Origin: Tubiluchus corallicola
Taxonomy: Eukaryota; Animalia; Priapulida
DNA length: 64,000 nucleotides
NCBI GenBank assembly: GCA_030141605.1
Contig: JAQGDQ010000227.1
Coordinates: 124,001 to 188,000 of the forward strand
Reading direction: 5' to 3'
Both the position numbers and the translations under genes were made by a program. Of the stretch, positions 2,684 to 60,368 are shown piece by piece (the stretch's first letter is position 1; each line of letters begins with the position of its first letter). The notes under the pieces are model-generated. The model saw only the letters and a program-made list of their open reading frames with translations. It did no database searches and was not told the origin of the DNA.

Positions 2684-3802
<1,119 letters not shown>

Positions 3803-10569: not shown

Positions 10570-24787
<14,218 letters not shown>

Positions 24788-27720: not shown

Positions 27721-30700
27721 AGCGCATTAACGCTATGTAATAAATTACTGGCACAGGTATTAACTATAGGTGAGAATAACATGAGCACGTTCCAGCCTCC
27801 CAAAAAGTTGAAAATGGATAGTAAAATATTATTAAGGAAAAGAAACATAGTAATGCTTTGACTTGGTCATGTACAAAAAAATAAGGTCAGCTCAGCTACT
27901 AGCGCTGAAATAATGCAGGTTATGGTTGCGATTTGTCATATGTAAAACAGTCGTATTGAAAATCAAATTTTTATCAAATGTATTTATGAGCTTTGTTATA
28001 TGCAGATGACAATACGTTTCCGATGATAGAGTCTGTTCATGGGTAGGGTTGACAACTCTGGACTATGATATCGTATGAAGATATAATTATGAAACGTAGA
28101 ACAAAGATAAGTCTGAGCAAAACATGGAATAAATGCCCATTGTTGATTGCTTCAAAAGACCAAAGATTACGATTTCATGGTCAAAGTAAATTTTTGCCTA
28201 TTATTCACATTCATGTGAATTTGTGAATCTCCTCAGCATTATTAATGAAAGGTATTAAGCAGTGCTTAGCAGGCATGTAGAACGAGCTATGCATTACTGC
28301 ATAAATGATTTACTTTGAACCCGTTTATCAGACTGCATTAGTTTTCTGTAGCTATTCCTGAATTTTATGAATAATCTATAATAATTCGTAATTTCAGCCA
28401 ATGCATCACATTAAATTGAATTATGGGTTGAAATTTTTGTATTTTATTACACAACACAAAAGGCAACTAGCAATGAATCTGACAAAAAATCAGCTTAGAA
28501 GTTTAAATTTAATGGCTTTAATTGGTAGTGGGTATAAATGGCACCCGCCAGTGGGTGAAACTTCTTAATGGCAGGTACATTTTTCGCATTTGTATGACTA
28601 CAAAAATGAAATACTATGCTGCTGTTGACAATTTATGTATCTATTTAAATAGATGTAAATTTACGTATCTATGTTTATCCAGAAGTTCTTCAGCCAATTG
28701 ACATTACCAGTTACAGTGTGTTATGTAACGTTCTGTAGCCACTGACATAGTCGTTCAGTACAGCTTGTGTTGTATTTTTGGTATAACACTTTTCCATGTC
28801 CATATCAAAAGTACATACGATACAGAGCATATGAAATCGAGAAGCTATTATTGATATTGCATGCGGCCCGGTGATAATGTGAACTTGAGTATTGATGTCC
28901 TATTACTACCATCAGAACATTCATTGGGGCATATCATTTGTCGTGGTTTTGCAGGTAGAATAATTCTTGTCTATACTGTGTATAAATGCTAAACTGACGG
29001 TTAATATTAAATAACCTGTAACTGAAACAGTTAACAAAACTTACCTACTGCCTGCCAGCTGCCGCGTCTGGTCTAATGTGCACCTGTAATTACAGATGAC
29101 ACTGCAAGCGACCAGGGTCAACAAAATTCGTTGCGCATGATTAGAAACTCCTATGAATTTCTCTATCTTAGTAATCATATAACTTTTTGTCAGGTGTGTC
29201 CTTTTAAAAGAAAAGAAAAAAAAAACTGAAACCCTATTTGGCAGTTTTTTAGCGATGCTTTCACAAGAATTTAAAAGCCGTGTCATGTTACAGTTTAAAA
29301 TAGGAAGAAAACAAGTGCAATTTTAAAGTATAAAAAAATCCACACAAAGTTATAATTATTACTTAGCACATACGTTTTATACTTACTTGCTGAAAAACTG
29401 AAAGAAATTCTGGTAAATGTCACTGACGTACCTTCCCAGTGTGCATCATTGATTCATTAAAAGCACATTATTGTTATCTTGTTGACCATATAAAGTAATA
29501 TAAACTTTTGTTTAGCTAGAAAAGAATGCGCTACAAATGCTTAATCATTTTTTAAACACTCTGCAATATTATCTAAAGTTGTTTCAAACGACATACCATT
29601 TAAATGGCTGAGTTAAGATGCTTTATACAGCAGTACTGCTAATACAGGCTCTGTGCGCAATCATGATAAGGCAGTATGCTGATGATGCAAAATTTCAAGA
29701 CGAATTTTTAAAGCTTTATTTACGAAGAGTGTTTGTTGAAGCTATGACGATTATACATCATGCAGTTTTTGGTTTTCTAAGTCGGCTGAGAGAATCCAGT
29801 AACCTGTTTATATAAATATTATAGCCAGTTTTGAACTCGGGCAAAGATGTCCACTTTAAGCACCGATTTCAGGTAAATTTTTGACTGCTGTTTAAAATTC
29901 GACAACTATTTTTTAAAAACTGAGTAAGATGTGTGGTTTCACCGGTTTGTGCCAATCTGCATTCGCATGACCAGTTCGTGCAGAATACTTATTTTACCGA
30001 AGCGTCATTATTGTTAACTGTCGCTACGAGCTTACGATCACGTGGTTTTCCCGCCATTTTGCGCGCTATTAAGTGTCTGCTTGCTGTTTGTTGGGTTCCG
30101 CTTTTTAAAACTTACTTAATTTAGTAGACTATTTACTGTGTTAAAAGCTGGCATGACGAAAAATACCTGCATGTGATTTTTCTTGCTTGTCAGTTTGTGT
30201 GCTATACAGTTCTTGGGGTCTCAGCGCTAATCGACTTGAAGGTACTACGGAAGACCAGTGCCGACTGGTAGGTACTACGGAAAGATTTTTAGAGTAAATT
30301 TGTTATAATTTTAAAGTGCTAGTGTGCTACACCTGTTGCTTACATATTGGTTTGTACTACGTTGACCGACGCGGATACCAATTTTATTTATCTTATTCAT
30401 TTTATTCAACGCTTTGGCCCAGAACAACAGCTTCTGATCATCTTTAAAATTGCACTTGGTGGTCGTAATAACAACTGATTTACTCGCCTTACTGTGCCAT
30501 ACAGTTGCTTTAGTTTCAGATATGGCACTGCATTTTGGGCATCCATATCTCGCTTGTTGTTGTTGTTGCCAAGTACATGTACAGCTCTACACTGTACACA
30601 TCTGCGTCCTGGTAGTGGTATGCCAAAGGTGGCTAGCTAAGATAAGCAGGTCAGCAGCAACAGTATATTTGATATTGTTATGGTCCTTCTGATAACTGTG

Positions 30701-33903: not shown

Positions 33904-34031
33904 TGACAGTAAATTTAATCTCGCTAAAATCCAGGAAATTTTTCATTGGCTAATGCAAATGAACTCGCGGCTAGACGCGCCCCCGATTGGCTAATGCAAA
34001 TGAGGGTGTAGAATGGGCGGGATTTCATTGG
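33904..34031 (+). promoter_or_regulatory. Promoter-like module: TGACA-AT element, three ATTGG (CCAAT) boxes, two octamers, GC box
   Basis: ATTGGCTAATGCAAATGA at 33945 and 33986, GGGCGGG at 34015, ATTGG at 34027; followed by AAAAATG|GTAAGT at 34121-34129. Confidence 0.7.
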
Positions 34032-34532
34032 ATGTAGTATTGACCCTTTGACTTTAAACTTAATATTGTACAGAGGAAAGCTATGTCGTGTATGCGAACG
34101 AGTTAAAGCTTTTTTAAAAAATGGTAAGTGGGACGCCCTGCCTCAGCTTCTCTGCGGTTAAGCAAAGAAATGCTGAATATCTGAAGGAGTTGTTTATAGG
34201 ACTTCCACTATTATACCCCTGCACGTGTTGCTTCAAATCACTGTAGCTGTCGCCTTTTTGTATGTTCAAAAAACCGCTTTAAAAATAAATTACTACGAGA
34301 ACAGGCGGTTTGGGAATCGTAAATATACGCCGTGCCTGGATAAAATAAAATAAAAAAAAATCCGCAAATACTTTTGCCCAGGCTTAGCATGGCAGACTGT
34401 CTGGATCCTTATTCAAATGTTTAAAATATTTTAAGAAACCGCTTGTATTTTACGCTTGAAGTGTAGTAATTTTTAGGATGAAGATATAATAAAACTTGTG
34501 AAGTAGTCGCTTGCCTGTGTGTATTTGTGTGT

Positions 34533-34575
34533 GTCAGTCAGTCAGGTAGTCAGTCAGTCAGTCAGTCAGTCAGTC
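34533..34575. repeat. (CAGT)n microsatellite
   Basis: Direct reading. Confidence 0.85.
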
Positions 34576-36184
34576 TGTCTGAGGACAGTCTGTAGTTCGT
34601 GTGTTGAGGTAAAAGTAATTTTTTTTCAGTTAAGCTAGGCGTGATTTCTCTCTACAATAGTTCGATCTTGAGATCGTTCCCTCAAGAATCGATCAGTAAT
34701 TAATATCAGAAGTTATCATATGAAAATGGTGGAAAGGTAGACAAGTATGTCACCTAGGAAACCATGTCGAGGCTTTACCTTGCAAACATCATTTCATCTT
34801 CATGGTCAACCGTTAATGGTCAATTTTCACTGGTCAGAACATTGCAGCATGTAGGAGGGCACGCACGGTTGTCTTGAAACACGTTTGTATTTCAAACACG
34901 TATAGGAAATAAAGTGCTGCTTAGACCACCGGTCACTTACTAGTCACTACATATGCTTCTCTACTTGCCGAGAACTTTCGTTTCTTGACTTAAGTTAAAT
35001 TATTACATTTATTAGATAATTTATTAGGAGATAGACAATAAGGTTTATTGTTGAAATTGTGGGTACAAGTCTGTCTCTCGTTAAATCACATATCTGTCAC
35101 ACCATGGACTAATTGGGATGACGACCTATGCGCATTTGTTAATGAGCGCCCAAATTTTCGCTATTGTAGTTTCTGGGCAAGAGCGACACGTCGTTTGTGA
35201 CCATATTTGTGAAACGGATATTTCTGAAGCCGTGAATTACTGTCTTGTTTTAATTAAGGCGTCAGATACGTAAATAAAGTTTGACTTCTTTTTGGATAGG
35301 CCTATATTTGCAAGTTAAATTGACAAACACAATTGCGCTGTTTTTGTATGACCTTTGTATAGTGTGAAATGTCTCAGGACTTCAACACAAATCAATCGTG
35401 AACCTGATATATCTACCGCTACTACTCTAATCTTGTCTATTTCCTCCCTTTCTGGTTGATACCAGAGCCTATTTGATATACGATGTGTGCTAGCCATAGT
35501 TAAAGTAATTAATTTGTTTGCTCTTTACATAAAAAGCAATTATGTAGTAGGTTGATAGTCGTAAATTAAAAGAACAGTCGCCAAAAGACTGGACAGCCGT
35601 GTGTTCTATCGATGCGTTTCTTATGTATAAGCTATTGTAAGTTACCAATGAAATATCATCACAGTCAACGTAATTTTGTTGTAGCTACGCAAATTTGCTT
35701 TAGCCTATAGTACTTTTGTACAGTTTTGGCCAGATGGGGCGTGATGAAAATGTTTTAGATGAAAAATGCATTTCCGTGCATGCAATGTTTCGAACATTTG
35801 AATAAACATTAGTCTTTGTTTGGTTAGTTCAGTGTAACACGAAGTTCTTGTTGATATCATACTTTGAGAGTTTCACTTTTGCGTATTGTGAACACAATGG
35901 GATATTTTCCTACTGTGAAGAGGGGGGGGAGTGCAACTTATAGTGGGTTAATTATTTAAAGGAGGGCAAACGCCTACGTATTACACGTAGCTGTGGCTAT
36001 AATTTTGTTTCGACTCTGCCGTCTTGGGAATGCATACAGGTGAAAAATAATAGATTTGCAAATTGGACGAAAATCTCTGTATTAGTTTTTGCTTAGGTGT
36101 TTTCTGAAGATGGTTTGAGAATAAAGGGTCGTTTACGTTTGTCCTTGTTTGGACGGGGACGGTTGCTTCTCGCATTGGCTAGGA

Positions 36185-36345
36185 GATCTAGATGGTCGAG
36201 TGTCCTAGCTTAATTCGTCTGCCCTCGATACGACAGGCATTGGGTTCGATACTAGTCTTGGTAGGTTCTCGAAGCATAAGTCACACTAGTTGGTCTAAGA
36301 AAAGGCGTGTCCAGGGACTGACGGAACAACTTACGTTTATGATGG
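36185..36345 (+). mobile_element. Degenerate tRNA-derived SINE-like sequence
   Basis: A-box-like TGGTCGAGTG and B-box GGTTCGATAC. Confidence 0.4.
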
Positions 36346-36664
36346 GTTAATGAATTCATAAATTTGTAGGTTCATGCATTAATGTTTGTGTAAAAACAGT
36401 TCGCATCTCTGCGTGATATATTGGACTTGGATATAGAACAGACTGGATAAAAGATTCTTTAAAAAACCCAGTAAGACAGTCGTGCTTTCTTGTGAGCTAA
36501 TGTCGCCTCCTTAACTTTTTGTGGTGGAAAAGATTAAGCCCAATAATAGATCTGAGTGCAAGCTGTCCTGCGTTAACTCACTCTTAATTAGTTGCCCTAT
36601 AGAAAGTCTGATTTAAAGCTTGGTAATAAGTGAACTGCATTTATTTAAAGTCAAACGGTTCTGT

Positions 36665-36755
36665 CAGTCTAATGTTTAAACTATCAATCTTATACGATTG
36701 TTCACAAACAGTCTAATGTTTAAACTATCAATCTTATACGAATGTTCATAAACAG
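36665..36755. repeat. 44-bp tandem duplication
   Basis: CAGTCTAATGTTTAAACTATCAATCTTATACGA... twice. Confidence 0.85.
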
Positions 36756-38744
36756 AAACAGGTAAGTATTAATTACCTGTGGAAAAATGATCGAACTGTG
36801 ATTAAGCTGCCAATGTAGCGGTTTGAGCACAATGCAAATTTATAGGCTAAATGCGTGATAATTTCTCGCTGTTTTGCAAGTGTGTGAAGGTACGCGGGGC
36901 TTTCATGTATTTTATGAAAAGCCAAGTTCCTGCACAACAATTTAATTACGTTAAACATTCGCAAGATTTATTACAGATGCCGATTTTTTTCCGACTTCTC
37001 TAATTAGCCCGGCGAGTGCGTTTCGGTCGTTACCCCTTTTCAGTTGCTATAAAAGCTTGCACCTCTTCTGTTAGGGGTGCTCATTTGCATAGGAGCGACC
37101 TTGGCTTTTTGTTCTACCCTCTACCCGCTTTGCATTGAACTCAAACACATGTGCACCTATATATCTTATTTTTTGCATTTTAATCAGGCAGCCCAAGCCG
37201 CAGCTGCCTCATTAAATTTAATCTGCTCAAATTTGGCTGCAAAATTTTCCCATTGGCAAGACGCCCAGGACACATTCTGTTTATTGTTGCGCAAGAGGTT
37301 TGTGTATTCTTGCTGGACACACCTGCTCCGGGAGCCGATGTTGGTGAAAATTCTGGCGACCGTGACTACTCTATCTGATTCTGGATTAATTCTTGTGGTC
37401 TTTGGTTGGGGTCGCTTACTTCTGTACGAGTCACCGTTGTTGTCATTGTCCTGTTAGGCAGTTATTATAAAGGAATTGTTGGATCTCCATAATTCGGTCA
37501 CCAAAACGTTGTTGAAAGGCAAAAATACGCAGTTTACGCCCGTTTACCGATTATAAGTTCAAAGCTAGCAGAACTACACGTGAGAGATCTCAGACCAGCT
37601 CTGCTATATTGAGTCACAAGGTTCTGGGTTCAATACCTAATTTTTTTAGCGCTTCCTTCTTCAGTTGCTCAGCTGTGTGGTTTTTTATTGTAAGCTTTAT
37701 GTTTTTCTCAATGCGTGTGTTTTCTGTATCTTCTGTATATCTTATGTATAATATTTTCTGATTACGTATTTGTGTTTGGATTTAACACAACCCAGAGTGT
37801 CTGAATTTCGATTTTGTCTGAATTAAGGCTGCTAACGCTGCGATTTGGGGATCTGTTACAAACTTACATTTTCATACCACAATTTTCGGGAGGGGGGGGA
37901 ACCTGTTGATCGTAATTCTCATTGCGTGTGAATTAGACTTTCCTCTCCACTTTTCACATTAAAATCAATCAGTTTTGAGATTGAGAAGACTGAGAAAACG
38001 AAAAGAAGACCCCCAAATTTTTAAAACCAAGTGCTCTGTATAAAAATTGTGTATTTTTTTCCTGGTAGCGATTAAAACCATGTAACATTCATAGGATGTA
38101 CCAAAAATTCTATTCAGTATGTATTGCGGATTTCCAGTTGTTGTTTTCTAAGGTAAAACACGCGGTGGAGAAAGATAGATGAGTAGAAAGATCTGGAGGT
38201 AATTAACTATGTAAAAGTAATTGTTTATAAAACGCTTTCTAAACTATGCAATCGTGGGCTGAAATTGAGATTAAAAATGAGAGTGCAATGCACGTATGAC
38301 TGATGTTTTTGAATCAAGCACAATTGTAGTACTTGTAATGCATCATAATCTAGGGTATTACGTCACTCTAATTGAACTGTATATGTAGCTGACATATGAA
38401 TTGTTTTAGGTGCACTTATGTTTGAGCAGCCGCCTTGCTGGGAGATTCTCCTTAACTTAGCTTTTTCCCTGTTAAGGTTAAGCATCACAGGATGTCGACT
38501 GCTGTGTGCCAAAGTGTATCTTCTTCCGTAACAGCAGGACAAATGTGATCCTTTTAAAAAGATCTTTAAATCATTGAGGGATGAGTATGGTTGTGTTCAG
38601 CATCCAAATTGCATGTTTCTCTACAGTTGCCTAATGGTCAGTGTATGCTGAACTGCTAAGGGTATTTATTATTATTTTTTAATTGGTATATCAATTAATT
38701 GAATATAAACTGGTATTTTAATAAGCCTTTTCATAGTTCCAGCG

Positions 38745-39065
38745 ATTGATGGTGATCGTGAAAAGGTCAAAGATTAAGTGTACCAGACAACGCATTTGTG
38801 TGCACTTGACAACGCCTCGCAGAGCATGGTATTGTAATAGTAACAGTTTTAACATCTAACTCTAACCTTACCTAGCTCATTTTTTCTTGTTCCTAAGCAA
38901 GTTCCCGCTAGTAAATCATTCTATGCATAGACTAATGCATAATTAAGTAAAGTCTACGTAAAACAATCGAATTTGTTGAACTGATGCAGCAGGCAATTTT
39001 GCTTTACCCACATGTCACGTGATGGTTGTAGTTAAGACACATTGCCATGATATACTTAACGTTTA
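38745..39065 (-). mobile_element. MITE family C copy
   Basis: Reverse complement of 19766-20075. Confidence 0.7.
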
Positions 39066-41454
39066 ACCTACAGCAACTGTGCGTGCGCACAGCGAAACTG
39101 TGAAAAAGCTTATTTAACATAGCCAGTGGTTCTTAATTAATGCAAAATTAAAAGTGAGCAGAAGCGGCCATCATGCAGCTGATTTGTTCTTTGTTTGTGA
39201 TCAAAATGTCAAATGTTCCCTTTACCATGTGGCTCTTACACCCACTGGGGTCATTAGACTTTCCTGGGTATTTCAATAGTTATTAGTGGGTGGGGAGGCA
39301 GGGCAATGATGAGCCAGGTGATATCATCTGTATACACACTCATTACTAAACAGTTTGACATTAATGAATGATCTCTTGTCAATGAACTGTATTTTATTGA
39401 TAAATGAACTTTTAGTGTTGTTTTTAGGATGTGAATTTCTTTGTCAAGCAGCTGTCACAGAATTGGCTAATTAAACGCTGACCAAACCAGTGGGAGCCAC
39501 GACCAGACCAGGCGAGATAAAGAAGAGAATTTGGTGCTCTGACACACACTGGCAGTTGCTATTTTAAGAATTAGTAATTTTATAAAGCTCTTTACGTCTT
39601 TTATGTGCAGTTTTTTTATGTTTTTCGTAATAAATTTTTCCACTACTTATAGGGTTTCCATCTCCAGCCTGAAAATCAACACGAAGCACTAATTTCGTTT
39701 GAATGTTTATCTGTTCTTCATGTGCACTTTGGAAGGACTGGTCGCCCATCCAGAAATCAGCCGAATAATCTGTGGCTGATTAGTGAGCACTGGTTAACTG
39801 TCATTGGTATACTTTCTTACTCTTCTTGTGTGATAGTAGTTTCCTTGCATTGAAGTGCAACTGTACAGAAATAATGGGCTGTTGCATGCAGCAAAGTCTG
39901 TTGCACCTACTTCTGACACTTTGCTGCCTGATTCTGAAGAATTATTCTCGGTAATAAGCTATGTTGCAGTCCTGCCACCAGCATTCAGCATTAGTAGGAT
40001 GCATTGAACACTTTTTAATGACTTGGTGTGCCAACTCTATAAAATTTTATTTTTAATATATTAAGTTAAAGTTCTTGCCTCGATTTCAATATTCATTTTA
40101 TCGCATGTCCTATATGTTGATTTTTTGATCTAAGAAGTGTGTAAAATCATACTAACAAAGCAAAAGTGAACTGACAAAAAACAAATTTAATCAGATTTTT
40201 TTCTAAAATTCTAAACATGTCTTTAATTTTTTTTGATATTCTTATTTGTCACTTGATTTAAAGCAGTTATGCATCTATGAAGTGTGTAAGTTTGATTTTT
40301 TCTTTCATATTTCTTTAGGAAACTGTTAAAGAAGATATGTCAGTAGACGTTCCTCAGAAACTAGGTCTGCTTCTGCTGCTAGCCAAACTTGTGGATAATT
40401 CGTGGTATCTACACAAATCAATGTTACTTAAATATGAAGTATTTTTAGTAAGAATGCAAAAGAAGTTTTTATAATGACATTAAGTTCGTAAGTATGTTTT
40501 TGAATAGATAACATTTTCTAGCTCTCGGGATTATAAGTGCTTGTTGTGTGTTACGGGCTGGCAGATGATGCAAAATGTCAGTATTGTAAGTATATGTTGT
40601 GTGTTACTGCATGCCAAAGAATTCAAGCTGCACATTGTCACTTGAACTAATTTAATTAATTTTTGTTAAAGTTTATTTTAGTGTGCCATGAAAGGATACC
40701 ATGTGGTGTGTTACAGATCCCAAGGACTTGTTGTGCAATGGGTGTATAGTTTTGATACAGTAGTCATACATACATTTCACTTGCACAACTTAACTACACA
40801 CTTTAGTTAATACCATTATCAATTTACTTTTAGAAAGTAGTCTAATAGAATTCACACTTGTCAGCTAAGTATTTTTATCACTGGTCATTGTCATCATCTT
40901 TGCTATCAAATTCATACAAACAATGTTGTCATCATTATCATTGTCACCGTCACCACCGTCAACATCATCATTTCAATAATGCATTTTTCGTACTTTCTAG
41001 GCTTCTGCAGTTTTAAGAAGTGAAAATGGAGCAAACTTGACCTGGAAAGTATAGTGTTTGGAAAGCCACTTCAGTTTCAACATGGCTGTCCTGGTTATCA
41101 ACATGTTTCAGGTTTGTTTTTATTTTAACGATAATTAATGAGTCACTAAAACAGCTCACTTTCTGCTTGTCTTACATCTAATTCAACTCTAGCATTACTG
41201 AAAATGTTTTTAATACTTCTGTTTATTACTTGAATTACTGATAATAGTGGTAAACTTTTCCCATAAAAATGTTTTGATAAATAAAATGATGAATGATTGT
41301 GTTGAAGATTACTAATTGACTATGACAACAACATTGATGACAATGACCAAAATCAAGACTTACTAATGAGGATGATTGCTGATGATAGCGCTGATGATAG
41401 CAATGATGCCAATTTTGACAAAGGTGGAGAGTTGATGTTGAGGGTATTTGTAGT

Positions 41455-41633
41455 GATAATGGTTATGATGATGATGATGATGATGATGATGACGACGACG
41501 ACGATGATGATGATGATGGTGATGACGATGATGATGGTGATGATGATTACAGTGACGATGATGATGATGGTGATGATGACGACAGTGATGATGGTGATGA
41601 TGATTACAGTGACGATGATGATGGTGGTGGTGG

Positions 41634-41665
<32 letters not shown>

Positions 41666-41985
41666 GTGATTGTGGTGGTGGTAGTGGTGGTGGTGTTGGT
41701 GTTGGTGGCATTGGTGATGATGATTATGATGGTGATTGTGGTGGTGGTAGTGGTGGTGGTGTTGGTGTTGGTGTTGGTGGCATTGGTGATGATGATGATG
41801 ATGGTGATTGTGGTGGTGGTAGTGGTGGTGGTGTTGGTGTTGGTGGCATTGGTGATGATGATTATGATGATGATGGTGATTGTGGTGGTGGTAATGGTGG
41901 TGGTGTTGGTGTTGGTGGCATTGGTGATGATGATGATGATGATGATGGTGATGATGATAATGATCAATAATGATAATAACGATAC
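41455..41985. repeat. Compound (GAT)n/(GGT)n trinucleotide repeat with internal block duplications
   Basis: Direct reading; explains low-complexity ORFs 41353..42000 and 41366..42184. Confidence 0.95.
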
Positions 41986-43550
41986 ACTCGATAGTAACAA
42001 CAGTCAGAGTTATGCTAGGTTTTTATTATTATTATTGTTATATATTATAGTTATTGACACTAAATCTGATGTTAAATTATTTCTTTATGCTGGTAAAAAT
42101 TATGAAACTTACTATGTTTTGAAATGTTTGAACTGTTTACTACTTAATTTTGCCTCTCTTGATAAAGCGTGTAGGCGTTCATAATCCCGGCAAGCACTTG
42201 CCAATAGTAGAAAATCTTATTTTTCCCAGTGTCAGACTTTCGAATACACGTGATCGTATCCTAAGTTGACTGCTGCTTCTACTGCTGTGTAGAACTCAAC
42301 AAGTTGTTTCTGTCTTTTGCACTGGGATGTCACACAGGTAGGTAGATTGGAGAGAAAATATGGCTAGACAGCCTCCGCCTAGCACAACTCTAACGCCAAT
42401 AAGATTTTTCTTTAATATTTTCAACGAATAAATTTACTGTCAAGCGGCCGGCTAGAGTGATTCCTCCATCCCTCCCTGACCCCCATTATTGCAAAAGTGT
42501 GTTTATAGTTTGTTAAAATATTATGAATAATAGCCGGGCCATTGAAAGTTTTTGCCGTTGACTGGATTTGCAGGGTGAACTTTAGTATTTATTGCTCGCT
42601 ATTTACAGACTTTTTAAATTATTTATTGCTACATTCTTACCGTATCGTAACCGGGTAATTACAAGACTGTGTGCTCGTCTTGCCCTGCTCTCTCTCTCTC
42701 TCTGTCTCTAAACGGCTTTACAACTGTGAATAACAACGTCAAAAAGCAGAGGAAGTGCCCGTGCTGCACAGATAGTGAACTTAATATTGTAGTTTTTGTA
42801 GTTAAGATGTGATTACGGCTCGTGAAATTGTAAATATCGATAAATGCATGTGCGCTCGCAGAACTGGATGTATTTGTCAAAAGTACTTTTATGCAAATTA
42901 TCGGGAATTTTCCAAAATTTGGGACTGCTAGTGGTGGCACCCTAGCGCAGGAAACTTAGTTAAAGTATGTCTTGTTTATTTCCCTTTGTTTTTTTAATTA
43001 TTGATTTTTTTATCAGGCAAAAGACGTTGTTGGTTTAAACGTTTTATGTCTGTTCGCTTTGAGTTAAAATCTTGAATTAGCATTTAATTTTTTATGTTAT
43101 TATTTAGCTTATGTTTGATAACGTTATTCCCATTGCTTGATATTAGAAAATTTTACAGGTTTGAATTCTTGTCCTTGCTTAAGTTTGATAAGTTGGTTTT
43201 TTGTATACAGTTAACTTTCACAGTTAAAGTGTTATCAAGATTCTGAATTCATAACTTATCATGTATACAAGCATACAAATACGCCTTTATGTTAGGTAAT
43301 CGAAATTATTTGATCATGAACAATAGGTTTTTTTTATAAAACCTAATCTCACAGTTTGCAAAACGATATTAGCTTCCCAAACGCCCGTTGTATAAACTTG
43401 CCTAATCTGCGCTTTATAGCCTGGGCTGAATCCCCACATGCTCTACGCAAAGCTAGACTCAGAATTTTCGAGAGTTTGCGGTAGCTGTTACTATAGCTGT
43501 TTGTGGAGTAGGCAGCCGATAAGCTGAATGTTGTTCTGACCCTAAGGGTC

Positions 43551-43909
43551 GTTGCCATGGCGACCCTGAAGTAAAATTTAATCAGAGAAAAACCGTGAAA
43601 TATTTTCATTGGCTTATGGCGGCTTGAGGCTGGATTGAGGCGGGTTTAGCCATGGCCTAGCCTGCCTCTTGCTTATACACGAACGCGTACAGCCCGAGTC
43701 TTTGACAATGAATTTAATGCTTCGAAGAATTATGAAAATTTTCGATTGGGTTAAGCAGCCTGTCAAACCGGCATAGGATAGAGTTTAGATTAAGACTTTG
43801 ACACTAAATTTAATTCGAACGAAAATTCAGGAAAATGCGTTATTGGGTGCCGGCTCGATTTCTGACAATAAATATAATGCTTTAACAAATTATTCTAAAA
43901 TCCCATTGG
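43551..43909 (+). promoter_or_regulatory. Cluster of 4 TGACA...ATTGG composite elements preceded by an RFX X-box
   Basis: Copies start at 43567, 43703, 43799, 43863; GTTGCCATGGCGAC at 43551-43564. Confidence 0.7.
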
Positions 43910-44213
43910 TCGTGTGCTTGGTTATGTTTAAGGCTCTGTTTAGTCATTTCACGGATTTGTTTAGTTATGTGAAATCTGCGTGAGCGTTTGGTCGAGTTGC
44001 ACGTGTGTCTGTTTGTTCTTTCATACTGGCTCGATTATATTTCATGCTTTTTTTCATCGCTTTCTGTATTTCGTATTCGTGGATGTTCTGTTGGACTTTG
44101 CTCTGTCTATTTGTATTAACTTTTTCGTGATACAATTTGTTGACTCGATCTAATTATGTTTTTTTCATGCGTGGAAATTGTCCTTATCTATGACAATTGT
44201 TGGATAGTTGCAT

Positions 44214-44313
44214 ACTGATGATTTCTGCTTGCTCTATGATCATTACAAATCATTGCTACTTGGACTGATGATTTCTGCTTGCTCTATGATCATTACAAAT
44301 CATTGCTACTTGG
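44214..44313. repeat. 50-bp perfect tandem duplication
   Basis: ACTGATGATTTCTGCTTGCTCTATGATCATTACAAATCATTGCTACTTGG twice. Confidence 0.9.
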
Positions 44314-46327
44314 GATATATGCTTTAGCCATTAGCCGTGCGGTATTGCTTTGAAGTTTTGGCATACTACTTGCTGTTCCTTGGATATAATCATCTAGTTT
44401 AGACCTGGACCGCCATATATATATGAGTCTTTTTTGTGGTGGCTTCATCGTATCATATAGATTTCTGTCTCGTACTTATTGTAATGATGGCTTCACTGTC
44501 CCGTTTCTTTGTTCAGTTGCGTTTCTACGCCTTTGATTTCACACACACACAAGCTCTCAGCCGAATGATACTGGCTAAATTTGAATTCAATCAATATGGT
44601 AGCCGACCAAGTATCCAGGCGTCGGCATGACCCGTGAGGATTTATATATCTCATGACGAAATGCACGTATACAGAGCGCCGGGTTTACCCCCTTTTCCCC
44701 TGATTTCTCTATTGATTGTTTTTGCAGCCTTCCTGGTCAATGATTAAGCCAGATAGGATCTCTGTTCACTCAAGTAGCAAAATGCTATGATTTATTTATG
44801 TAATTTCAATCAATTGGCGGTATTTACTACTACACTTCTCTCCCAGGACGGCCTGCATATTGCATTTCAGTCTGACTGTGCTGATGATTTTTCTGCTGCT
44901 GTAATGTTTTACAATAGGGGGAGTCATCACGTTTCTGTCACGTGACAGAGGAAATACAAATAAGTCTGAGGAAAAAATTGAGCTCCATATTTGAAGTTCA
45001 TTTTCTCGTGTAAAAAACATTTGCCAAAGATAATTTTGCATCATTAACAGTACGTAATGTACATGCACATTGTTAAATGTTGCTCTTGACATTATAAACT
45101 AGTCCATGAAAAAACAGCAAAACAGCAGTTCACATTTATTGTACATGTTGTTGTGTTAAACGAAATAAACACATAAACAGGTCAACAATAAAGTGACATA
45201 GTAGTGCAATGTAATAATGCATAGAATAACGCAATAACACTCCGAGAATATAACATTTTCAAATTTTTTATTAAGTGTCACAAAAATATGATTTTGATGA
45301 TGACATCATATATGCCTGAATGTACAGGTACCAATTTCCTTTTCTAATTCCCATTAATTAACAGGTAAATATGTGAAGAATGTGTTGCTAATAACAAAAC
45401 AGCTGCCACTTTAATCAATACACATTAATTTTTAATTGGAAACTAATTGTCCATTAACAGCATAATTGTTTTAAATCAATTTTGCTGATTTTAGTTTTGC
45501 TTATTGATTAGGTGTTGAATTTTTAACACACCGGAGGACATAGTTCTATTCAAAGCAACAAGCTTGGCTCCTACAAAGGCAGTTTCGTCCCACGGAAAAT
45601 GGCCTCCTTCATGCTTGAAATTTCAATTCAAGTTATTAAATTCAGTTTCGATATATGAGATTAATAGCTCAGCATGAATTTGGCTACACCGTTTTCTTCG
45701 GATTAGGGTATAGTCGGTGGTTTTTCGATCAGGCCTGCTATCAAAGGGCGTGCTTTGTTGCGGAGGCCGCCATTTTGTGAACGTTTTCGATCGAAAGTGG
45801 GCTTCCAGCTCACTTTTACGTTGTTTGTTGTAGAAATTTGTTTAATTTTCATCTAATTTACGCATCATTTGACAAATCTCTTTTTAATTTATAGGAATGA
45901 ATGACTCTATCTAATTAGCATATTTATTCCATGTGAACAACTGATTGTTTTTCAAAATAATAATTGACAATAACATAAATGTAAGCATTTGTGTTGTGTT
46001 GACTATTAAATTGTGTTTTTTAAGAATTGCAATTAAATTTTTATTTATTTATTTTCTTCATTATTATATTATGTTGCGTAAAATGCTGTTTGTATGCCAC
46101 GTTCACTTTTATGATGGTTATTGCGAAACACTCGTATCACTAAACTTGTTCTTAATTCAGGATTAAGCTCTGGATTCATAGATATTTTGTATTGTTACTC
46201 TATTTTCAGAACGTAGTGGTCCCCACACCTTTCCATCAAGTGGTCACGACCATTTACTTACAACGTGTGACAGTTGTTAACGTGCATTCTTTATTCTGTT
46301 CACTTTGTGTCACATGAAAATGGCCAT

Positions 46328-46693
46328 TAGGGGTGAGCATCGAACTTACGAACCTAAAATTATAGATTTGAACAATTCAGCACTTCAGCCACATACATTC
46401 TTTATAATTAAAATGTTTGAAACGGCATGCAATTAGCACGATTTAACTGCAATTTCTGTGCAAATTTTTTAGCAAACTAATAGCAGTTTTACTGCAGAAC
46501 AAAATCAAGTAATATGTATGATCTCTGTAAGACCACTTTTTACTGTTGGTTCGAAAACTTGCTCGAAAATCTTTCAAACTCAATTCAAATTCGATTCAAA
46601 TTTGAAATACTGAAACTCGGTTCGATTCAAATGCGAAAGACATAAATTCGATTCGATATGAGTTCGCTTTCTGGAAGAGAATGCTCAGCCCTA
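46328..46693. mobile_element. hAT MITE
   Basis: TIR TAGGGGTGAGCAT / ATGCTCAGCCCTA; 8-bp TSD ATGGCCAT; TTCGA subterminal repeats. Confidence 0.88.
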
Positions 46694-48586
46694 ATGGCCA
46701 TGCGTGGTCACATGAAAATGTTTCACACAAGAATTGGAATTTCCAATACAGTTTAGCTTGTAAAGTTGTGCATTCAGTGCAATAAATGTCTAATTGCAAT
46801 CAGCATTTTTTGCAAAACAATGAAAGGGACCACTTATCTCTGTGTCGAGGTACTCCTCAGAAACATTGTAACCGATTAACTTCTGTGTCAGGCATGCCAC
46901 GTATTCATTTGCTATCTTCACGTGTTACTGTGTGATTATGCTCAGTTACAACGTATTAATTGCTGACTTTTGATACCCTACTGTGTGACTGCACTCAGTT
47001 ATAACATTTTACCGTTTCACTGTTTAGTATGCACGCATTAGAGTCTCTTGCAGTTCTCTGTCTCTCTTCCTCTCTAATGCACGTGTCATTTATGATTTAC
47101 TGGACTTAGTTGCAGCTTAACTCTACTGGTCTTGTTGCTGGCAGTTATGTAAATTGATTTATCTCTGCTATATAACTAACATTCAATTTAAGGCATATTG
47201 CTTTTTGCGCCAGTTAAAGGTGCTGGCTTTATTACCAGCATGATTGTGTACAAGCCGTTGTAACGACTCTCTTTACTCTCTGTGGCTGCTCGGACACCGG
47301 GAGGGGGCGCTGCCTCTGCGCGCACTCGGCACTGCATATTAATTTTTCGCTGTTAAGTTTTGTTTTCCGGGAATTTTATTTTCCTGCCAGCACGATTTTA
47401 TACAGGCCCTGGCGCCTAAATGGGCAAAGGAAGTTTGATTTTGATCTTAAATCATCTCCGCTTTAACCGTAAATCGCGAGTGATTTGGGCCGCGCAGCAG
47501 TCAGCATCAGCAGCCGGTTGCTTAGTGACCGCATCACTGATGCGCTGTCGTCAAGACGTATGCACGTTTATCTGATCATGATGGCGGTATGAATTTGGTT
47601 TGAGAAGGAAGATTTTTACATGACTGTTCCCGATGAATGCTTGTGTAATTAATTTAGCGCAGAACATCGACCAAATAATAAAGGAATTGTCTGTTACGAT
47701 TTTCACTGATTTCACTCTTTGTTGTATGAAAGAATTATGAATTATTAGACAGTGAATTCTAGAGTTTTAGTTGTTTTTCTACATTAATTGCTTTGTTGAC
47801 TCGTTTTCCATCTCCCCACTAGCATTTTTGCATAAAAGCTGTAGCAAATAAACTTTTCAATAAAAAATCAATTAATTTCCTTTTTCACTTACGTTTACTT
47901 ACTCACCGCCCCGATCAAGTCGTCTGGCACTTGTTCCAAGGGTTAATTTTTAAAATATAATCGATTTGAATACAGTTAGTTCCTGAAGAATGCAACAAGA
48001 TTCAGGTGCCACGGAAGCAGTCATAGACATACATAGACATAGACATAGAACATTTATTTTCTCCAGTTAGTTTAACATCAAAAGTTTTTTAAATATTACG
48101 TAATTATAATCATGGAGTCTTCTGAACTGATATGTGTATGTGTTTATGTATGTGTTTATGTGTGTGTGCCAGTAGAATTTAGTAGAAGCAAACTATGGAA
48201 ACGTGTTTGTTGCAACAAAAAACGTGGAAAAATGTTAACATTCCACAAATTCTGCACAATCTGCTTTTCTACGCTAAAACATTTTGCTTGTTGTCGTGTT
48301 GAAATCAGGCCAACGGCACATTAGCCTGGGTGATAAATACACTTAGAGTCGCGTTACATTATATTGGAGTAATAATTATGACAGGATACGTGTATGACTC
48401 ATAAGTCATAACTTAGGCATGGTTTTAAAATCAGCTCGATTGTTAAAATGGTGGCTGATCTTGTGTGGTTGTTGTTCGTCCATTGAAGCTTTTGTTTTTT
48501 TTTCGTCCACGTTTCGGCTCCGGTTGCGGTTCTGTGCTTACTAAAGCGTTTACTACGGGGCATTAGAGGAGTTGGCTTTAGCTGGC

Positions 48587-49136
48587 TGCCATAAAATTTA
48601 ATCAGCAGATAAATTCAAAAAATCGCTATTGGCAGTCCGTGACTCATGGGGTTGAACTTGTGCAAAATGATTAGGTAGCTACTGTATGACCTCACCCGCC
48701 GCCCCGTTTGACAGTAAATTTATTCCGAGTATAAAATTGCAAAAATCCGCTATTGGCGCTGCGAAGATGGGGTTGGGGCTTTGCATAGGCTGCCCTAGAT
48801 TAATTGTCTAAGCGTTTAGATGGGTAGGGGCCTGCAGCGCTTGTGACATTAAATATAATCAGCCGAAATATGAGAGAAATTTCCCATTGGCTGCGGCATG
48901 GTCTATTTACATATAATGCATGGCGTAGTGCGCCCGCTTGTGATAGAAGGCAGGCAGGCGTTTGTTTCAGTTTGACATTAAATTTAATCTTAGAAAATAG
49001 CGCTTAAATTTCTAATTGGTTAGCACCAAAGTAATTTTGGTTTTGCCACAATGCCTTGCCATTATTACTGAAGAATGAACCGGCCGAGTTTGACATTAAA
49101 TTTAATCTTGGTGAAAATTCAAAAAAATCCCATTGG
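48587..49136 (+). promoter_or_regulatory. Cluster of 5 TGACA...ATTGG composite elements
   Basis: Copies start at 48587, 48709, 48844, 48973, 49091, separated by unrelated GC-richer linkers. Confidence 0.7.
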
Positions 49137-50670
49137 TCTGTCGGTTAAAAGGGTAAGTTAAAATGGATGGCTGTCTAGTAGAATGTTGTTATTTACTGTT
49201 GTTGCACGATGTGCTGTGTGGTTTGATGAATTTGTGTTGTGTTTTGTTTTACAAGAGGATTATGTTCATAATTACTTGTGCATGAATAGTCTGCTTATGT
49301 TGATTAATGGATAGTGCGGCTGGCGACTGGTTTTTTTGCACTTTTGGATACCTTTACTGCTACTGCTGTTACTGCTGTTGCTATAGTTTAATGGAATACG
49401 GATATTTTGCGCAGTGCTCTTTTTGGATTTTGAATTTGAATTTGACAACAGTGCGATTAATTTTTTTGGTCGCAAACTTGTGGTAAGTATATAAAAGATG
49501 GGCGTTCGTCCATTTTGTGATCGTCTTTGTCGTTCTGTTGTTAGGCTTTGTTTAGCTGCTTTCCTATAACGTAATGTATCATCTTGACACGTATTAGCAA
49601 CATTTGTACACTAGGATTTAAGATTATTGTGAAGAAAAGGCAGCAAAGACCAAAATAATGTTCGTCTAGTCAAGTGGCTCAGAGGAAGCTTGGTACCGTT
49701 TAAATTATTATCTGTTATTTGTTCGTATACTTTCTATTATCTGTTGGTCTCTTGCAAGTAACTCTACTTCAGCAATTAAGGAATTCAGGGTTCATCAGTC
49801 CTAGAAAAATATTTCCGATTGATAGGTTAATGCCAGTCAGAATTACCAAAAAATGCTGAAATAACCAATATGCTGCTCTCGTGAGCTTTAATACTGATTT
49901 TTTTTTGATAAATAGGTGTGGTTGTGATCAGTAAAAATTTCCTCATACTTGCATGTGGTACATTAGGGACAATAGGCCGATGTACTCTTGTATGTCCAGA
50001 ATCTGAAATAAGCATTCATTTTCTTGTGAAAATCAATAGGGTCTCATAAAAAATCAATGATTTCATTATGTGCGTTAATGCATCTCCAAGATATCTACCG
50101 ATCACTTTTGCAAGAATTCAACGACAAGCGTTTCCTATTCCTTATGCAGTTTACATGTATGTTGCATAATTGTACTTCAGAACTTGTGGGACTATACATA
50201 ATACTATTGTGAATTTTTATATTGTATAGGCCTATGGTTACATAACCACGTCTTCTCTGGCTAATTACAAGGATGTATTTCCTCAGAAGTCTAGGTTGAG
50301 TTACTAAATGTTAAATTTGCATTAAACAGAATGAATCATATTCATAAATTTGTACAGTGTACATGGGCCTGCAAATAAAACCCAGATCAAAAATTGTATG
50401 TGGAATTGACGTTGTATATGTATGCGTAATAACAATGTGTACAGCAAAGGCTGTTGATACAAATATTGCGCATATTGCTGCTTTATAGTGGGCATATTAG
50501 TTGAGGTCTTGGTTCTGCAGACTTAATTTAATGGGTATACAGAGCTAGGTAAAGTGGAAGCAAACTTTTATAAAGATATAGAGGAGTTTGATGTTGTTTG
50601 TGTGTTGTAAACTAATTTGCCTATTGTCTGAAGAGAAGTTTGTTATCTTAAGGTTGTTTGGCACTGCATT

Positions 50671-52116
50671 GCGAAGGTCTTTGTATACTTAACTAAGTTG
50701 CATTGTTGAGGTCGCGAAGATCTTTGTATACTTAACTAAGTTGCATTGTTGAGGTCGCAAAGATCTTTGTATAGTTAACTAAGTTGCATTGTTGAGGTCA
50801 CGAAGGTCTTTGTATAGTTAACTAAGTTGCATTGTTGAGGTCGCGAAGGTCTTTGTATAGTTGACTAAGTTGCATTGTTGAGGTCGCGAAGGTCTTTGTA
50901 TAGTTGACTAAGTTGCATTGTTGAGGTCGCGAAGGTCTTTGTATAGTTAACTAAGTTGCATTGTTGAGGTCGCGAAGGTCTTTGTATAGTTGACTAAGTT
51001 GCATTGTTGAGGTTGCGAAGGTCTTTGTATAGTTAACTAAGTTGCATTGTTGAGGTTGCAAAGGCCTTTGTATAGTTAACTAAGTTGCTTTGTTGAGGCC
51101 GCGAAGGTCTTTGTATAGTTAACTAAGTTGCATTGTTGAGGTCGCGAAGGTCTTTGTATAGTTAACTAAGTTGCATTGTTGAGGTCGCGAAGATCTTTGT
51201 ATACTTAACTAAGTTGCATTGTTGAGGTCGCGAATATCTTTGTATACTTAACTAAATTGCATTGTTGAGGTCGCAAAGATCTTTGTATAGTTAACTAAGT
51301 TGCATTGTTGAGGTCACGAAGGTCTTTGTATAGTTAACTAAGTTGCATTGTTGAGGTCGCGAAGCTCTTTGTATAGTTGACTAAGTTGCATTGTTGAGGT
51401 CGCGAAGGTCTTTGTATAGTTGACTAAGTTGCATTGTTGAGGTCACGAAGGTCTTTGTATAGTTAACTAAGTTGCATTGTTGAGGTCGCGAAGGTCTTTG
51501 TATAGTTGACTAAGTTGCATTGTTGAGGTTGCGAAGGTCTTTGTATAGTTAACTAAGTTGCATTGTTGAGGTTGCAAAGGCCTTTGTATAGTTAACTAAG
51601 TTGCTTTGTTGAGGCCGCGAAGGTCTTTGTATAGTTAACTAAGTTGCATTGTTGAGGTCGCGAAGGTCTTTGTATAGTTAACTAAGTTGCATTGTTGAGG
51701 TCGTGAAGGTCTTTGTATAGTTAACTAAGTTGCATTGTTGAGGTTGCAAGGCCTTTGTATAGTTAACTAAGTTGCATTGTTGAGGTTGCAAAGGCCTTTG
51801 TATAGTTAACTAAGTTGCATTGTTGAGGTCGCGAAGGTCTTTGTATAGTTTACTAAGTTGCATTGTTGAGGTTGCAAAGGTCTTTGTATAGTTTACTAAG
51901 TTGCATTGTTGAGGTCGTGAATGTCTTTGTATAGTTAACTAAGTTGCATTGTTGAGGCCGCGAAGGTCTTTGTATAGTTAACTAAGTTGCATTGTTGAGG
52001 TTGCAAGGCCTTTGTATAGTTAACTAAGTTGCATTGTTGAGGTTGCAAGGCCTTTGTATAGTTAACTAAGTTGCATTGTTGAGGTCGCGAATGTCTTTGT
52101 ATAGTTAACTAAGTTG
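50671..52116. repeat. 43-bp minisatellite, about 33-34 copies
   Basis: Unit GCGAAGGTCTTTGTATAGTTAACTAAGTTGCATTGTTGAGGTC with point variants and no unique spacers. Confidence 0.97.
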
Positions 52117-57900: not shown

Positions 57901-60368
57901 AATGTCAAATATAATTGTGTTTTGGTCATGGATTAGAAGGGGTACTACTATTTAGGAGCATACTAATTAGATTCTATTATCTGTATCAAAGATAATGTTA
58001 AATGGGATATTTATGGGATAACTGGGATAACTTACGTATAAGTTGCTCTCTACTTACAGCACATGGAGGGCATTAAAATCATAAAGTTTCACGTGTTCTC
58101 TCAAAGGCAGCATGCCAACGTCTTCTAGTGGCCCTTCTTTATTTGTCTGGCAACCTTGATATTAGTTCATCAGTTTCAGTCTGGTGATGTACTTCTTAGG
58201 CAGATTTTATGTATAAGTGTTAATGTCTGCCTCTCATTTAGAAAATACTCTTTTACATTTCACGTATTTGAGCATGATGCTTTTCAAGTACATTTGCCTT
58301 GATTACTGCTTTCAGTGTAAACTAAATCAAATACCCCATTAAGACTTGCTGGCAGCCATAGTATCCTACAAGGCAGATTAATATTATGCTGCCTCTCAGC
58401 TTTCATTTAAGCATATGTACATCTGCATTTCTAATAAACCAATTATTGTATTTGGTTAAAGGATGGAGTACTTTCCTCTCACAATGTACGTTTGCTGCTT
58501 TAATTTTCGAATGCCATGTGTTCAATTTATGCCAATTATATTTTGCATCCATTGTAGGATTATTTTTCTGCAGTTTGGCACGTTACTTATGAATGGCTTA
58601 CTATTAAATTTCATCTACAGAGGAATTATGAAAATTTTTATTGGGTCTTTGTGTTTGTACTGGAACTCTTTTGTGGGCAGCTTTTGTACAGAATCAGCCT
58701 GCGTGGGGTATTGATTCATGCATCTTACACTGGCTGTATACAGCTACTATGGGCACTCTCTCCATGTAGCTTTTTGTTAGCATGTAATGTACTGGATGAA
58801 CATTATTTGACCAAAAAGTTTTTAATAGCATTGTTTTCTTTGCTTCTGAGATTAGTGAGCAAAATTTACTGGAAAATTTCCATCCAAGCATCTATACAAT
58901 TATGGGTCTATTGTCGTTATTAAATGTTGTCAATTTTCCTGGCATTGTCTTGCTAATTATTTGTTCCAACCTTCTGCATGTAATGGTGAGCGGTGTATGA
59001 TTTTTCCATTAAACCATAAAAAATCTATTAGCATTTTGTGCTTGCAGTGGGCTGATATTTTTGCATAGATTTCATGCTTCGCACTTTTGTGTGAGAGAGG
59101 TGGCTTGACTGCTTTTACGTTATGTTTATTTGCTCCTAGACAACCATGTGCCTAGTGTTTCTGGTGGAATTTCAATTTTCTCCATTTTGTTTTCATTTTT
59201 TAGTTATATTCTTGAGACTCAGGGTTTTTTAAATCCTGGTGCTGTATAGTGTGACATCAATTTTAAATAAATGAACCTGTATTTAGTTCTGAGGCATTTC
59301 ACATTTATATTTAATATTCTTGTGCATTATTTAATGTTGCTCAAATGGCATGAGGTTACTTATACATTTGGTGTCTTATCACACTCTTGGTTAAAACAAG
59401 CGTAAAACCGAGACAAACCATGTGAGCCTTCAGAAAGTAAATCAGGCAAGATCGTTCACAGAAACTGTTATAAACAGTCGAAATGAATGCTGATCTTCTG
59501 TTTTTGCCTATATTTAAGTGCAAAGTAGTTGTGTATGTACCATTTTACAATTGTGTAAATGGAGTGCAATGATACAGTCAAAGGTGAAATAAACTATTTA
59601 TATATATTTATATGTAAAAGCGAACATATGTCATCATTTATGCATAGTATGCTGGAGGTTTATGAAAAAGTTTTGCTGTTTTTGCTGCCCTTTAGGTATT
59701 GTTAGTGATACCATTTCAAGGTTCCCTAACTATTAACCCGTGCTGTATTGCCAGTGCTATAATTAGTAACTGTCATTATTAAGGAAGAGAAAATTTTTCT
59801 TGGCTCGATTGACTTGCAGTGACTTCCTTATTGGGACACTTAGTAATTTTGGCGAATAACTTCTACGGATCTGTATAGTTTATAGCGTGATTTGTATGTA
59901 AAAGTACTGTCATCGTATGAATACTGTTCATATTGAATAGTATTTTGCACATTTTTCCAAGCTTGTACTTACAGAATCTTAAATGATAATGAGAATAATT
60001 CCATTGGGGATAATTATTCCTGTAAAGCTGTATTTACATTTCAAGTGGCCTCCTGCAAGCTTTAATTGCTGTAATTAGGGAAGTCAGACAACTTGGTATT
60101 GCTCCGGCAATCGTATGATTTTGCTAGTAGGCATTTTCAAGCTTCGTCTTCTAATTACAGTTTTTCCTACTAGGTTTCAGATTTCCCATGGACACTTTTA
60201 ATTGCGATTGTATTATAATTAGTTTGCACTAGTTACTGGAGTCAACTGTAAGTAAAGCTCATGAGGTTTCTAGACCTTACCATGTTGTCAGCTGCTGTAT
60301 GTAGATGATAGATATTTGTAGTATGGTTTCAAGTATGTATCCTTTAGATTATCCTTTAGACATAGGAT

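Follow-up and report, generated by a model that had tools for sequence, protein, structure and literature searches.

A clustered, twelve-copy DNA element of fixed geometry in the priapulid Tubiluchus corallicola that resembles an NF-Y-anchored composite regulatory site

Composite DNA sites of fixed geometry are usually recognized in chromatin immunoprecipitation data that span thousands of loci; in the literature compared here, the partners of NF-Y stand within about two helical turns of the CCAAT box. In the portions of the sources drawn on here, known NF-Y partners are placed 10 to 12 bp 5′ of CCAAT, and in the vertebrate DECA-CCAAT system (PBX/PREP with NF-Y and Sp2) DECA lies 10 to 11 bp 5′ of CCAAT (bioRxiv 10.64898/2026.02.16.706105; PMC7793273). 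The bipartite CBC:HapX site of Aspergillus is given as CSAAT-N12-RWT plus TKAN, with the distal HapX half-site 11 to 23 bp 3′ of CCAAT; the fungal CCAAT complex is assigned the consensus CCAATVR and a coverage of 13 nt 3′ of CCAAT, and HapX is described as fungal-specific (PMC7144946). NF-Y is reported to bend DNA by ~80 degrees over ~30 bp (bioRxiv 10.64898/2026.02.16.706105), and human NF-Y peaks include double CCAAT boxes with a 43-bp class whose partners that source leaves open (PMC4889920). Also relevant are (i) the 21U-RNA (Ruby) motif of Caenorhabditis elegans, described as a core and a 35- to 42-nt A/T-rich spacer followed by the RNA (PMC3597512); and (ii) the Drosophila spermatocyte grammar of Achi/Vis TGTCA, ACA and CNAAATT, described as lying on opposite sides of the start with broad spacing (PMC7197356). 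Here we describe an element that occurs in 12 copies within 64,000 nucleotides of T. corallicola DNA (assembly GCA_030141605.1, contig JAQGDQ010000227.1, positions 124,001 to 188,000, forward strand; hereafter the window). The element is real and highly non-random in this window, and the copies are probably a clustered, NF-Y-anchored composite regulatory DNA element, for which a partner and a target gene are proposed conditionally below. The whole case comes from one locus in one genome.

All 12 copies listed in an initial annotation of the window were found at the coordinates given there and with the spacings claimed. Each is 46 to 50 bases long, and together they cluster in an apparently non-coding stretch. 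The consensus consists of a 17-bp left block, TGACAnTAAATWTAWTC, an A-tract at about positions 22 to 28, a second A-tract at about 31 to 38, and then ATTGG, which starts 41 to 43 bp from the first base of the left block in 11 of the 12 copies. Site A holds copy 1 (33904 to 33949, spacing 41) and site B copy 2 (37207 to 37256, spacing 45, left end degenerate), both on the plus strand, and site C holds copy 3 (42396 to 42442, read from 42442, spacing 42), the sole copy on the minus strand. Site D comprises four plus-strand copies between 43567 and 43909, namely copy 4 (43567 to 43612, spacing 41, left end degenerate), copy 5 (43703 to 43749, spacing 42), copy 6 (43799 to 43846, spacing 43), and copy 7 (43863 to 43909, spacing 42). 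The five copies of site E, between 48587 and 49136, are likewise on the plus strand: copy 8 (48587 to 48632, spacing 41, left end TGCCA), copy 9 (48709 to 48756, spacing 43), copy 10 (48844 to 48890, spacing 42), copy 11 (48973 to 49019, spacing 42), and copy 12 (49091 to 49136, spacing 41). Four copies are thus packed into 343 bp and five into 550 bp, with none in the first 33.9 kb of the window; the plus strand carries 11 of the 12, and just five sites, four plus and one minus, are independent. As an amendment to the claim that no complete copy lies elsewhere in the window, a probable, decayed 13th copy was detected on the plus strand at 58599 to 58644. This copy is without TGACA and lies in CpG-poor DNA (flank CpG observed/expected 0.24); its two-block score of 21.9 was above all 40 of 40 shuffle maxima, yet its nhmmer E-value was 0.56.

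The geometry of the element was compared with that of shuffled sequence. A strict two-ended pattern was matched eight times in the window and not once in 100 dinucleotide shuffles; since this pattern was derived from the copies themselves, the halves were also tested apart. The left half on its own gave eight matches in the window, and ATTGG followed 41 to 43 bp on in all eight. A left-half matrix at a score of at least 16 marked 12 places, all of them copies, compared with a mean of 0.08 in 12 shuffles. A gapped matrix scan of the window, as proposed in the initial annotation, placed the copies far above the shuffle maxima, with two-block scores of 38.6 to 54.7 for the copies versus maxima of 8.2 to 17.5 over 40 shuffled windows. 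Leave-one-out scores ranged from 24.5 to 42.6, and 3 of 12 (24.5 to 28.2) fell under 28.4, the largest of 20 Markov-shuffle maxima. The proposed phasing of the A-tracts about 10 bp apart was borne out, as the tracts of the spacers are in register, with column information of 11.2 bits versus 5.6 bits for shuffled spacers (maximum 8.8 of 2,000) and 4.5 bits for rotated spacers (maximum 9.3 of 2,000), and a best period of 9.5 to 10.5 bp. The spacing of 41 to 43 bp, together with tracts in a register of about 10 bp, therefore points to double-helical DNA.

This bears on a reading in which the copies would act in nascent RNA, as a repeated structure or a protein-binding module of a long non-coding transcript. 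Eleven of the 12 copies lie on what would be its sense strand, and their AAAU/UAAU units could bind RNA-binding proteins; however, it is hard to see what a 10-bp period would mean in single-stranded RNA, and one copy is inverted. On the element strand no fold was detected in any of 13 copies (z-scores of −1.19 to +1.47), and the copies' own flanks had no pairing advantage over swapped ones in any of 20 settings (p of 0.25 to 0.90). We hold action in RNA to be very improbable. A hairpin closed by the copies' own flanks, suggested by eye, was rejected on these same non-significant swap tests and null z-scores.

Other sequence collections were scanned as controls for chance. The viral, metagenome and prokaryote collections are mostly non-animal, and they are silent on conservation among animals. 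In viral contigs a loose pattern was found at 91 loci, with a single match each and spacings scattered from 31 to 51; a peak at 35 came from redundant contigs, and spacings of 41 to 43 occurred in 6 of the 91. A relaxed pattern was matched at 115 metagenome loci, again once each; no second copy was found at these loci (flanks complete for 80 of 115), and the best single matches scored 35.7 to 38.7 and were without the middle A-tract. The strict pattern gave three single matches in 596 billion bases of prokaryote genomes. Chance matches are therefore rare and unclustered in these mostly non-animal collections, and no cluster of the element was found in any of the three.

The surroundings of the copies were examined with regard to a repeat origin. 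The initial annotation had stated that the flanks share nothing; this stood for the upstream flanks, which were at the null level of likeness (11.55 versus 11.61), but not for the downstream flanks, which were slightly above it (12.80 versus 11.83, standard deviation 0.31; 11 of the 12 flanks were compared per side, one being left out for overlap), and two neighboring copies have a 23-nt exact stretch in common. The slight likeness of the downstream flanks and the 23-nt stretch make it likely that old local duplication is part of the history of the cluster. They also speak, along with clustering mostly on one strand, for a reading in which the copies have no function and are left over from a minisatellite, or from sub-terminal repeats of a transposon, that was locally duplicated. 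Against such relics, the ends and the tract phase are kept though the linkers of the five-copy cluster show no relationship to one another (6 of 6 pairs, z of −1.2 to 1.85) and the upstream flanks are at the null level, and neutral decay would not spare the ends. Within the window, Tandem Repeats Finder reported no array on any copy (29 rows) and no interspersed repeat overlapped one. The claim that the element is neither a transposon nor a simple tandem repeat was thus upheld on the scale of the window, and we view an origin as mere relics as very improbable. The flanks also differ from the element in composition, with a GC content of 0.52 and 0.48 versus 0.28 in the element. They hold 16 to 22 CpG per 500 bp, compared with a mean of 11.0 over 30.1 to 62 kb (p = 0.002) and of 13.7 over 30.1 to 50 kb (p = 0.011), and such CpG-rich flanks would match the expectation for unmethylated regulatory DNA.

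On the opposite strand, the ATTGG end reads as the CCAAT pentamer in 12 of 12 copies. Its flanks were judged against the preferences of animal NF-Y, namely a purine at +2, a purine at −1, and C/G at +1. A purine at +2 of CCAAT was present in 12 of 12 copies versus 52 of 111 other sites in the window (Fisher p = 3 × 10−4), a purine at −1 in 10 of 12 versus 56 of 111 (p = 0.035), and G at +3 in 6 of 12 versus 19 of 111 (p = 0.016). On the plus strand of site A, ATTGG recurs at intervals of 41 bp in three boxes (33945, 33986, and 34027; 33945 to 34031), the first of which is that of copy 1; pairs of ATTGG at 41 to 43 bp occur twice in the window, both at site A, compared with 0.36 expected. These flank tests and the site A boxes agree with the earlier assignment of ATTGG as a reverse CCAAT box for NF-Y, and by its sequence this end looks like a true NF-Y site. 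The first two site A boxes are each followed by an octamer, ATGCAAAT (33953 and 33994, plus strand), and a GC box lies at 34015 on the same strand. A degenerate left half with a score of 11.5 and without ATTGG was seen at 34049 to 34065, just past the third box; left-half scores of this size also occur by chance.

The left end was less readily assigned. TGACA is present in 9 of the 12 copies, YTGACA in 8, TGACAG in 3, and a MEF2-like YTAWWWWTAR in 5, and the DECA decamer TGANTGACAG in none of the 12. The initial annotation had named TGACA(G) a TALE core; the incomplete presence of TGACA, the scarcity of TGACAG, the lack of DECA, and a distance unlike that of DECA-CCAAT leave this assignment weaker than that of the CCAAT end. 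A homeodomain complex, of TALE or other type, could plausibly bind the left end. The left block reaches a high score (at least 16) solely where ATTGG follows (12 of 12 matches). This coupling, and the conservation of the left 17 bp at the level of the CCAAT end, could suit a different arrangement in which a single multi-domain or oligomeric factor, distinct from NF-Y, covers all 46 bp (an AT-hook, CUT/homeodomain, or zinc-finger protein, for example), or in which the element has a polar structural role in chromatin, for instance in nucleosome positioning or as a boundary. Units of AAAT/TAAT appear four times along its length, and three CTCF-like motifs, at 32075, 42928, and 47299, are interleaved with the element sites. 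A tolerance of 41 to 45 bp would, however, suit separate proteins better than one rigid array, and the CCAAT flanks obey NF-Y rules; a single factor or a structural site is accordingly rated as distinctly unlikely.

Comparison with the described systems revealed likenesses but no identity. With DECA-CCAAT the element shares a TGACA-type site at a fixed distance from CCAAT and multiple copies in one place, as DECA-CCAAT has per promoter. Here, in contrast, all 12 copies have TGTCA starting 36 to 40 bp 3′ of CCAAT (CCAAT strand), and a TAAATTTAAT block and the two phased A-tracts stand between the ends. Identity with DECA-CCAAT was rejected, as DECA occurs in 0 of 12 copies and a TALE site 10 to 12 bp 5′ of CCAAT is missing apart from a half site in 1 of 12; this sole case is TTGACAG at 43760 to 43766 (minus strand), which stands at the DECA-CCAAT distance and ends 10 bp 5′ of the CCAAT of copy 5. 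The closest system in layout is CBC:HapX, with CCAAT, an A/T-rich submotif past the footprint, and a distal 3′ half-site. In 11 of 12 copies RWT was found at 12 to 16 nt, which is weak evidence where DNA is A/T-rich, whereas the exact N12 spacing was found in just 2 of 12, and the distal site lies at 36 to 40 nt instead of 11 to 23, about two turns farther. On the N12 count, and with a window that encodes animal PSMA4 and CK2-alpha while HapX is fungal-specific, identity with CBC:HapX was also rejected. The four-turn spacing of the element, and the site A trio at 41 bp, resemble the human double CCAAT boxes 43 bp apart, as those are described (PMC4889920), but the far end of the copies is a TGACA-TAAATTTAATC block and not a second CCAAT. 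The left block recalls the spermatocyte grammar in its TALE-type TGACA and a string of ACA...AAATT; however, CNAAATT fits 1 of 12 left blocks, and NF-Y is named 0 times in the main text of that paper (PMC7197356). No description of the element was found in the open-licence literature; subscription papers or supplements could hold such a motif.

Geometry, phased A-tracts, NF-Y-type flanks, and a CpG-rich setting are directly observed features of the element. Taken together, they suggest a composite site that is anchored by NF-Y and unusual in spanning four turns. In the favored reading, NF-Y would bind the CCAAT end and bend the DNA, and a partner, probably of homeodomain type, would occupy the 17-bp TGACA-TAAATTTAATC end four helix turns away, with the left block 24 to 40 bp out from CCAAT. 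On the CCAAT strand, the first T-tract would fall inside the NF-Y histone-fold footprint and the second would begin just past it. The A-tracts may pre-bend the DNA or give narrow minor grooves to a bridging factor, and their shape may keep both ends of the element on the same helix face. Copies of the same geometry at five sites could drive one long plus-strand unit, either strongly or in a graded way, and some sites might act beside alternative first exons. The multi-copy cis-regulatory element proposed in the initial annotation thus appears to be the best reading, with its NF-Y end supported and its TALE assignment unproven.

Several results weigh against this composite site: (i) the left end lies 36 to 40 bp off CCAAT, beyond the reported distances of NF-Y partners; (ii) it fits no single known site cleanly; (iii) C/G at +1 of CCAAT, in 7 of 12 copies versus 38 of 111 other sites, is not significant (p = 0.12); (iv) the distances from copy to copy (12.95, 9.14, 6.10, 11.62, 12.86, 12.29, and 11.24 turns) are whole turns in some cases only; (v) no GTRAGT lies within 400 nt at 2 of the 5 sites; and (vi) a Pfam scan of plus-strand frames did not place the target gene in the window. 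A more ambitious version, in which NF-Y and a distal factor on one helical face, joined by two phased A-tracts across four turns and repeated 12 to 13 times, would dose one regulator gene (possibly self-regulating) or fire alternative starts, is only tentatively advanced and is more doubtful than not. If true, such a long-range grammar would reveal which kind of partner is missing for CCAAT spacing of four turns, and it could be the signature of an entire regulon in this animal group. The 12 natural variants at one locus, which keep their ends, length, and A-tract phase although the remainder has diverged, amount in effect to a set of mutants that nature has already supplied; should NF-Y cooperate with a partner over four turns, they would allow a direct test of DNA-shape-mediated cooperativity and suggest how the unexplained 43-bp class of CCAAT boxes may be laid out.

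It was also considered whether each copy is a directional mini-promoter, with a short RNA or a first exon starting at or just past ATTGG, that would work like the nematode 21U-RNA upstream motif or a proximal element of small nuclear RNA type. A short motif, an A/T-rich spacer, a fixed distance of about 40 nt, and clustered same-strand units do resemble the 21U layout as described (PMC3597512), 11 of the 12 copies face the predicted direction of transcription, and a pyrimidine stands two bases ahead of ATT in 12 of 12. In contrast to the 21U system, the copies are without the CTGTTTCA core, have an invariant CCAAT at the far end, and number 12 units, with five independent orientations, instead of thousands. 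Identity with a 21U cassette was rejected, as only 1 of 12 copies has a GTTTC core, either internally or in the preceding 60 nt, and 0 of 12 have a YYANWYY initiator; these counts also speak against the 21U-like alternative raised in the initial annotation. Moreover, NF-Y, unlike an initiator, accounts for the invariant GG and for the purine 5′ of CCAAT, and Rfam gave no match at gathering score, with two weak, unrelated matches at E ≤ 1 that were taken as chance.

Donor-like sites after three of the five sites are a further point for the mini-promoters. GTAAGT was found within 300 nt downstream of these three, compared with a background of 0.10 to 0.16 per site, and is at most suggestive of donors beside alternative first exons. 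At site A, an ATG followed by a GTAAGT donor-like site (34121 to 34129, plus strand), 175 nt after copy 1, is a candidate first-exon end; a spliced-leader RNA reading of this ATG/GTAAGT was rejected, as no Sm-like site was seen there by eye. At site E, AGG/GTAAGT lies at 49150 to 49158 on the plus strand, 17 nt past copy 12. On balance, mini-promoters are an unlikely explanation of the copies, and the NF-Y-anchored composite site remains the reading that we favor.

The copies lie in a region with a consistent strand skew. At 30 to 62 kb, 31 of 32 1-kb bins hold more T than A, versus 4 of 20 at 10 to 30 kb, where CK2-alpha lies, and G exceeds C in 27 of 32 1-kb bins from about 30 kb versus 6 of 20 within CK2-alpha. 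Because of this skew, it is likely that a long plus-strand transcript, head-to-head with CK2-alpha, spans the element region. All 209 plus-strand frames of at least 36 aa at 29 to 64 kb were scanned against Pfam, with 152 minus-strand frames and two repeat blocks outside the scan, and none was above the cut-off (seven weak matches, E of 0.005 to 0.05). The large, possibly autoregulated downstream gene posited in the initial annotation is a candidate for which this plus-strand scan gave no coding exon, although the skew is compatible with a long transcript there. Candidate plus-strand non-coding exons between AG and GT were noted by eye at 38410 to 38480 and 41001 to 41110.

The window encodes PSMA4 on the plus strand (3095 to 3802) and a multi-exon CK2-alpha on the minus strand, with coding exons from 24787 down to about 10573. 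The 5′ end of CK2-alpha is placed near 30050 to 30100 on the basis of a YY1-like motif there and of the point at which the strand skew switches; it would lie 4 to 19 kb from the element sites, and CK2-alpha could also be a target of the element. Two YY1-like motifs, CGCCATTTT, at 30052 to 30060 and 45768 to 45776, point to the minus strand; the former fits the proposed CK2-alpha 5′ end, and the latter may mark an antisense or distal CK2-alpha start. Further motifs near the copies are TATAAAAG with a reverse octamer (37048 to 37090, plus strand), upstream of copy 2, and an RFX X-box-like palindrome at 43551 to 43564, directly before copy 4. The nearby octamer, GC-box, X-box-like, and YY1-like motifs were counted for a regulatory role of the copies.

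With regard to the genes, PSMA4 joins Priapulus (98/94) in a 40-row tree without annelids, and its short first coding exon is apparently followed by the gene's only intron (2693 to 3802). The best match of the CK2-alpha tail among the named proteins tried was that of Octopus; its C-terminal exons lie at 10520 to 11480, with a possible extra exon at about 10750 to 10880 by eye, and a 24-bp tandem repeat in a CK2-alpha intron (18765 to 19320) gives rise to long spurious open frames. As for repeats, a compound GAT/GGT microsatellite of about 500 bp lies between sites B and C (41454 to 41983), and a satellite of 33.7 copies of a 43-bp unit with 94% matches (50671 to 52116) begins 1.5 kb downstream of the last copy; its period equals the element spacing, and its sequence looks unrelated. 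An interspersed repeat family is represented at 62651 to 63750, with relatives at 12894 to 13546, 23093 to 23424, and 29411 to 29734, and its copy at 62.6 to 63.7 kb forms a long inverted pair (76% over 484 nt) reminiscent of a non-autonomous DNA transposon.

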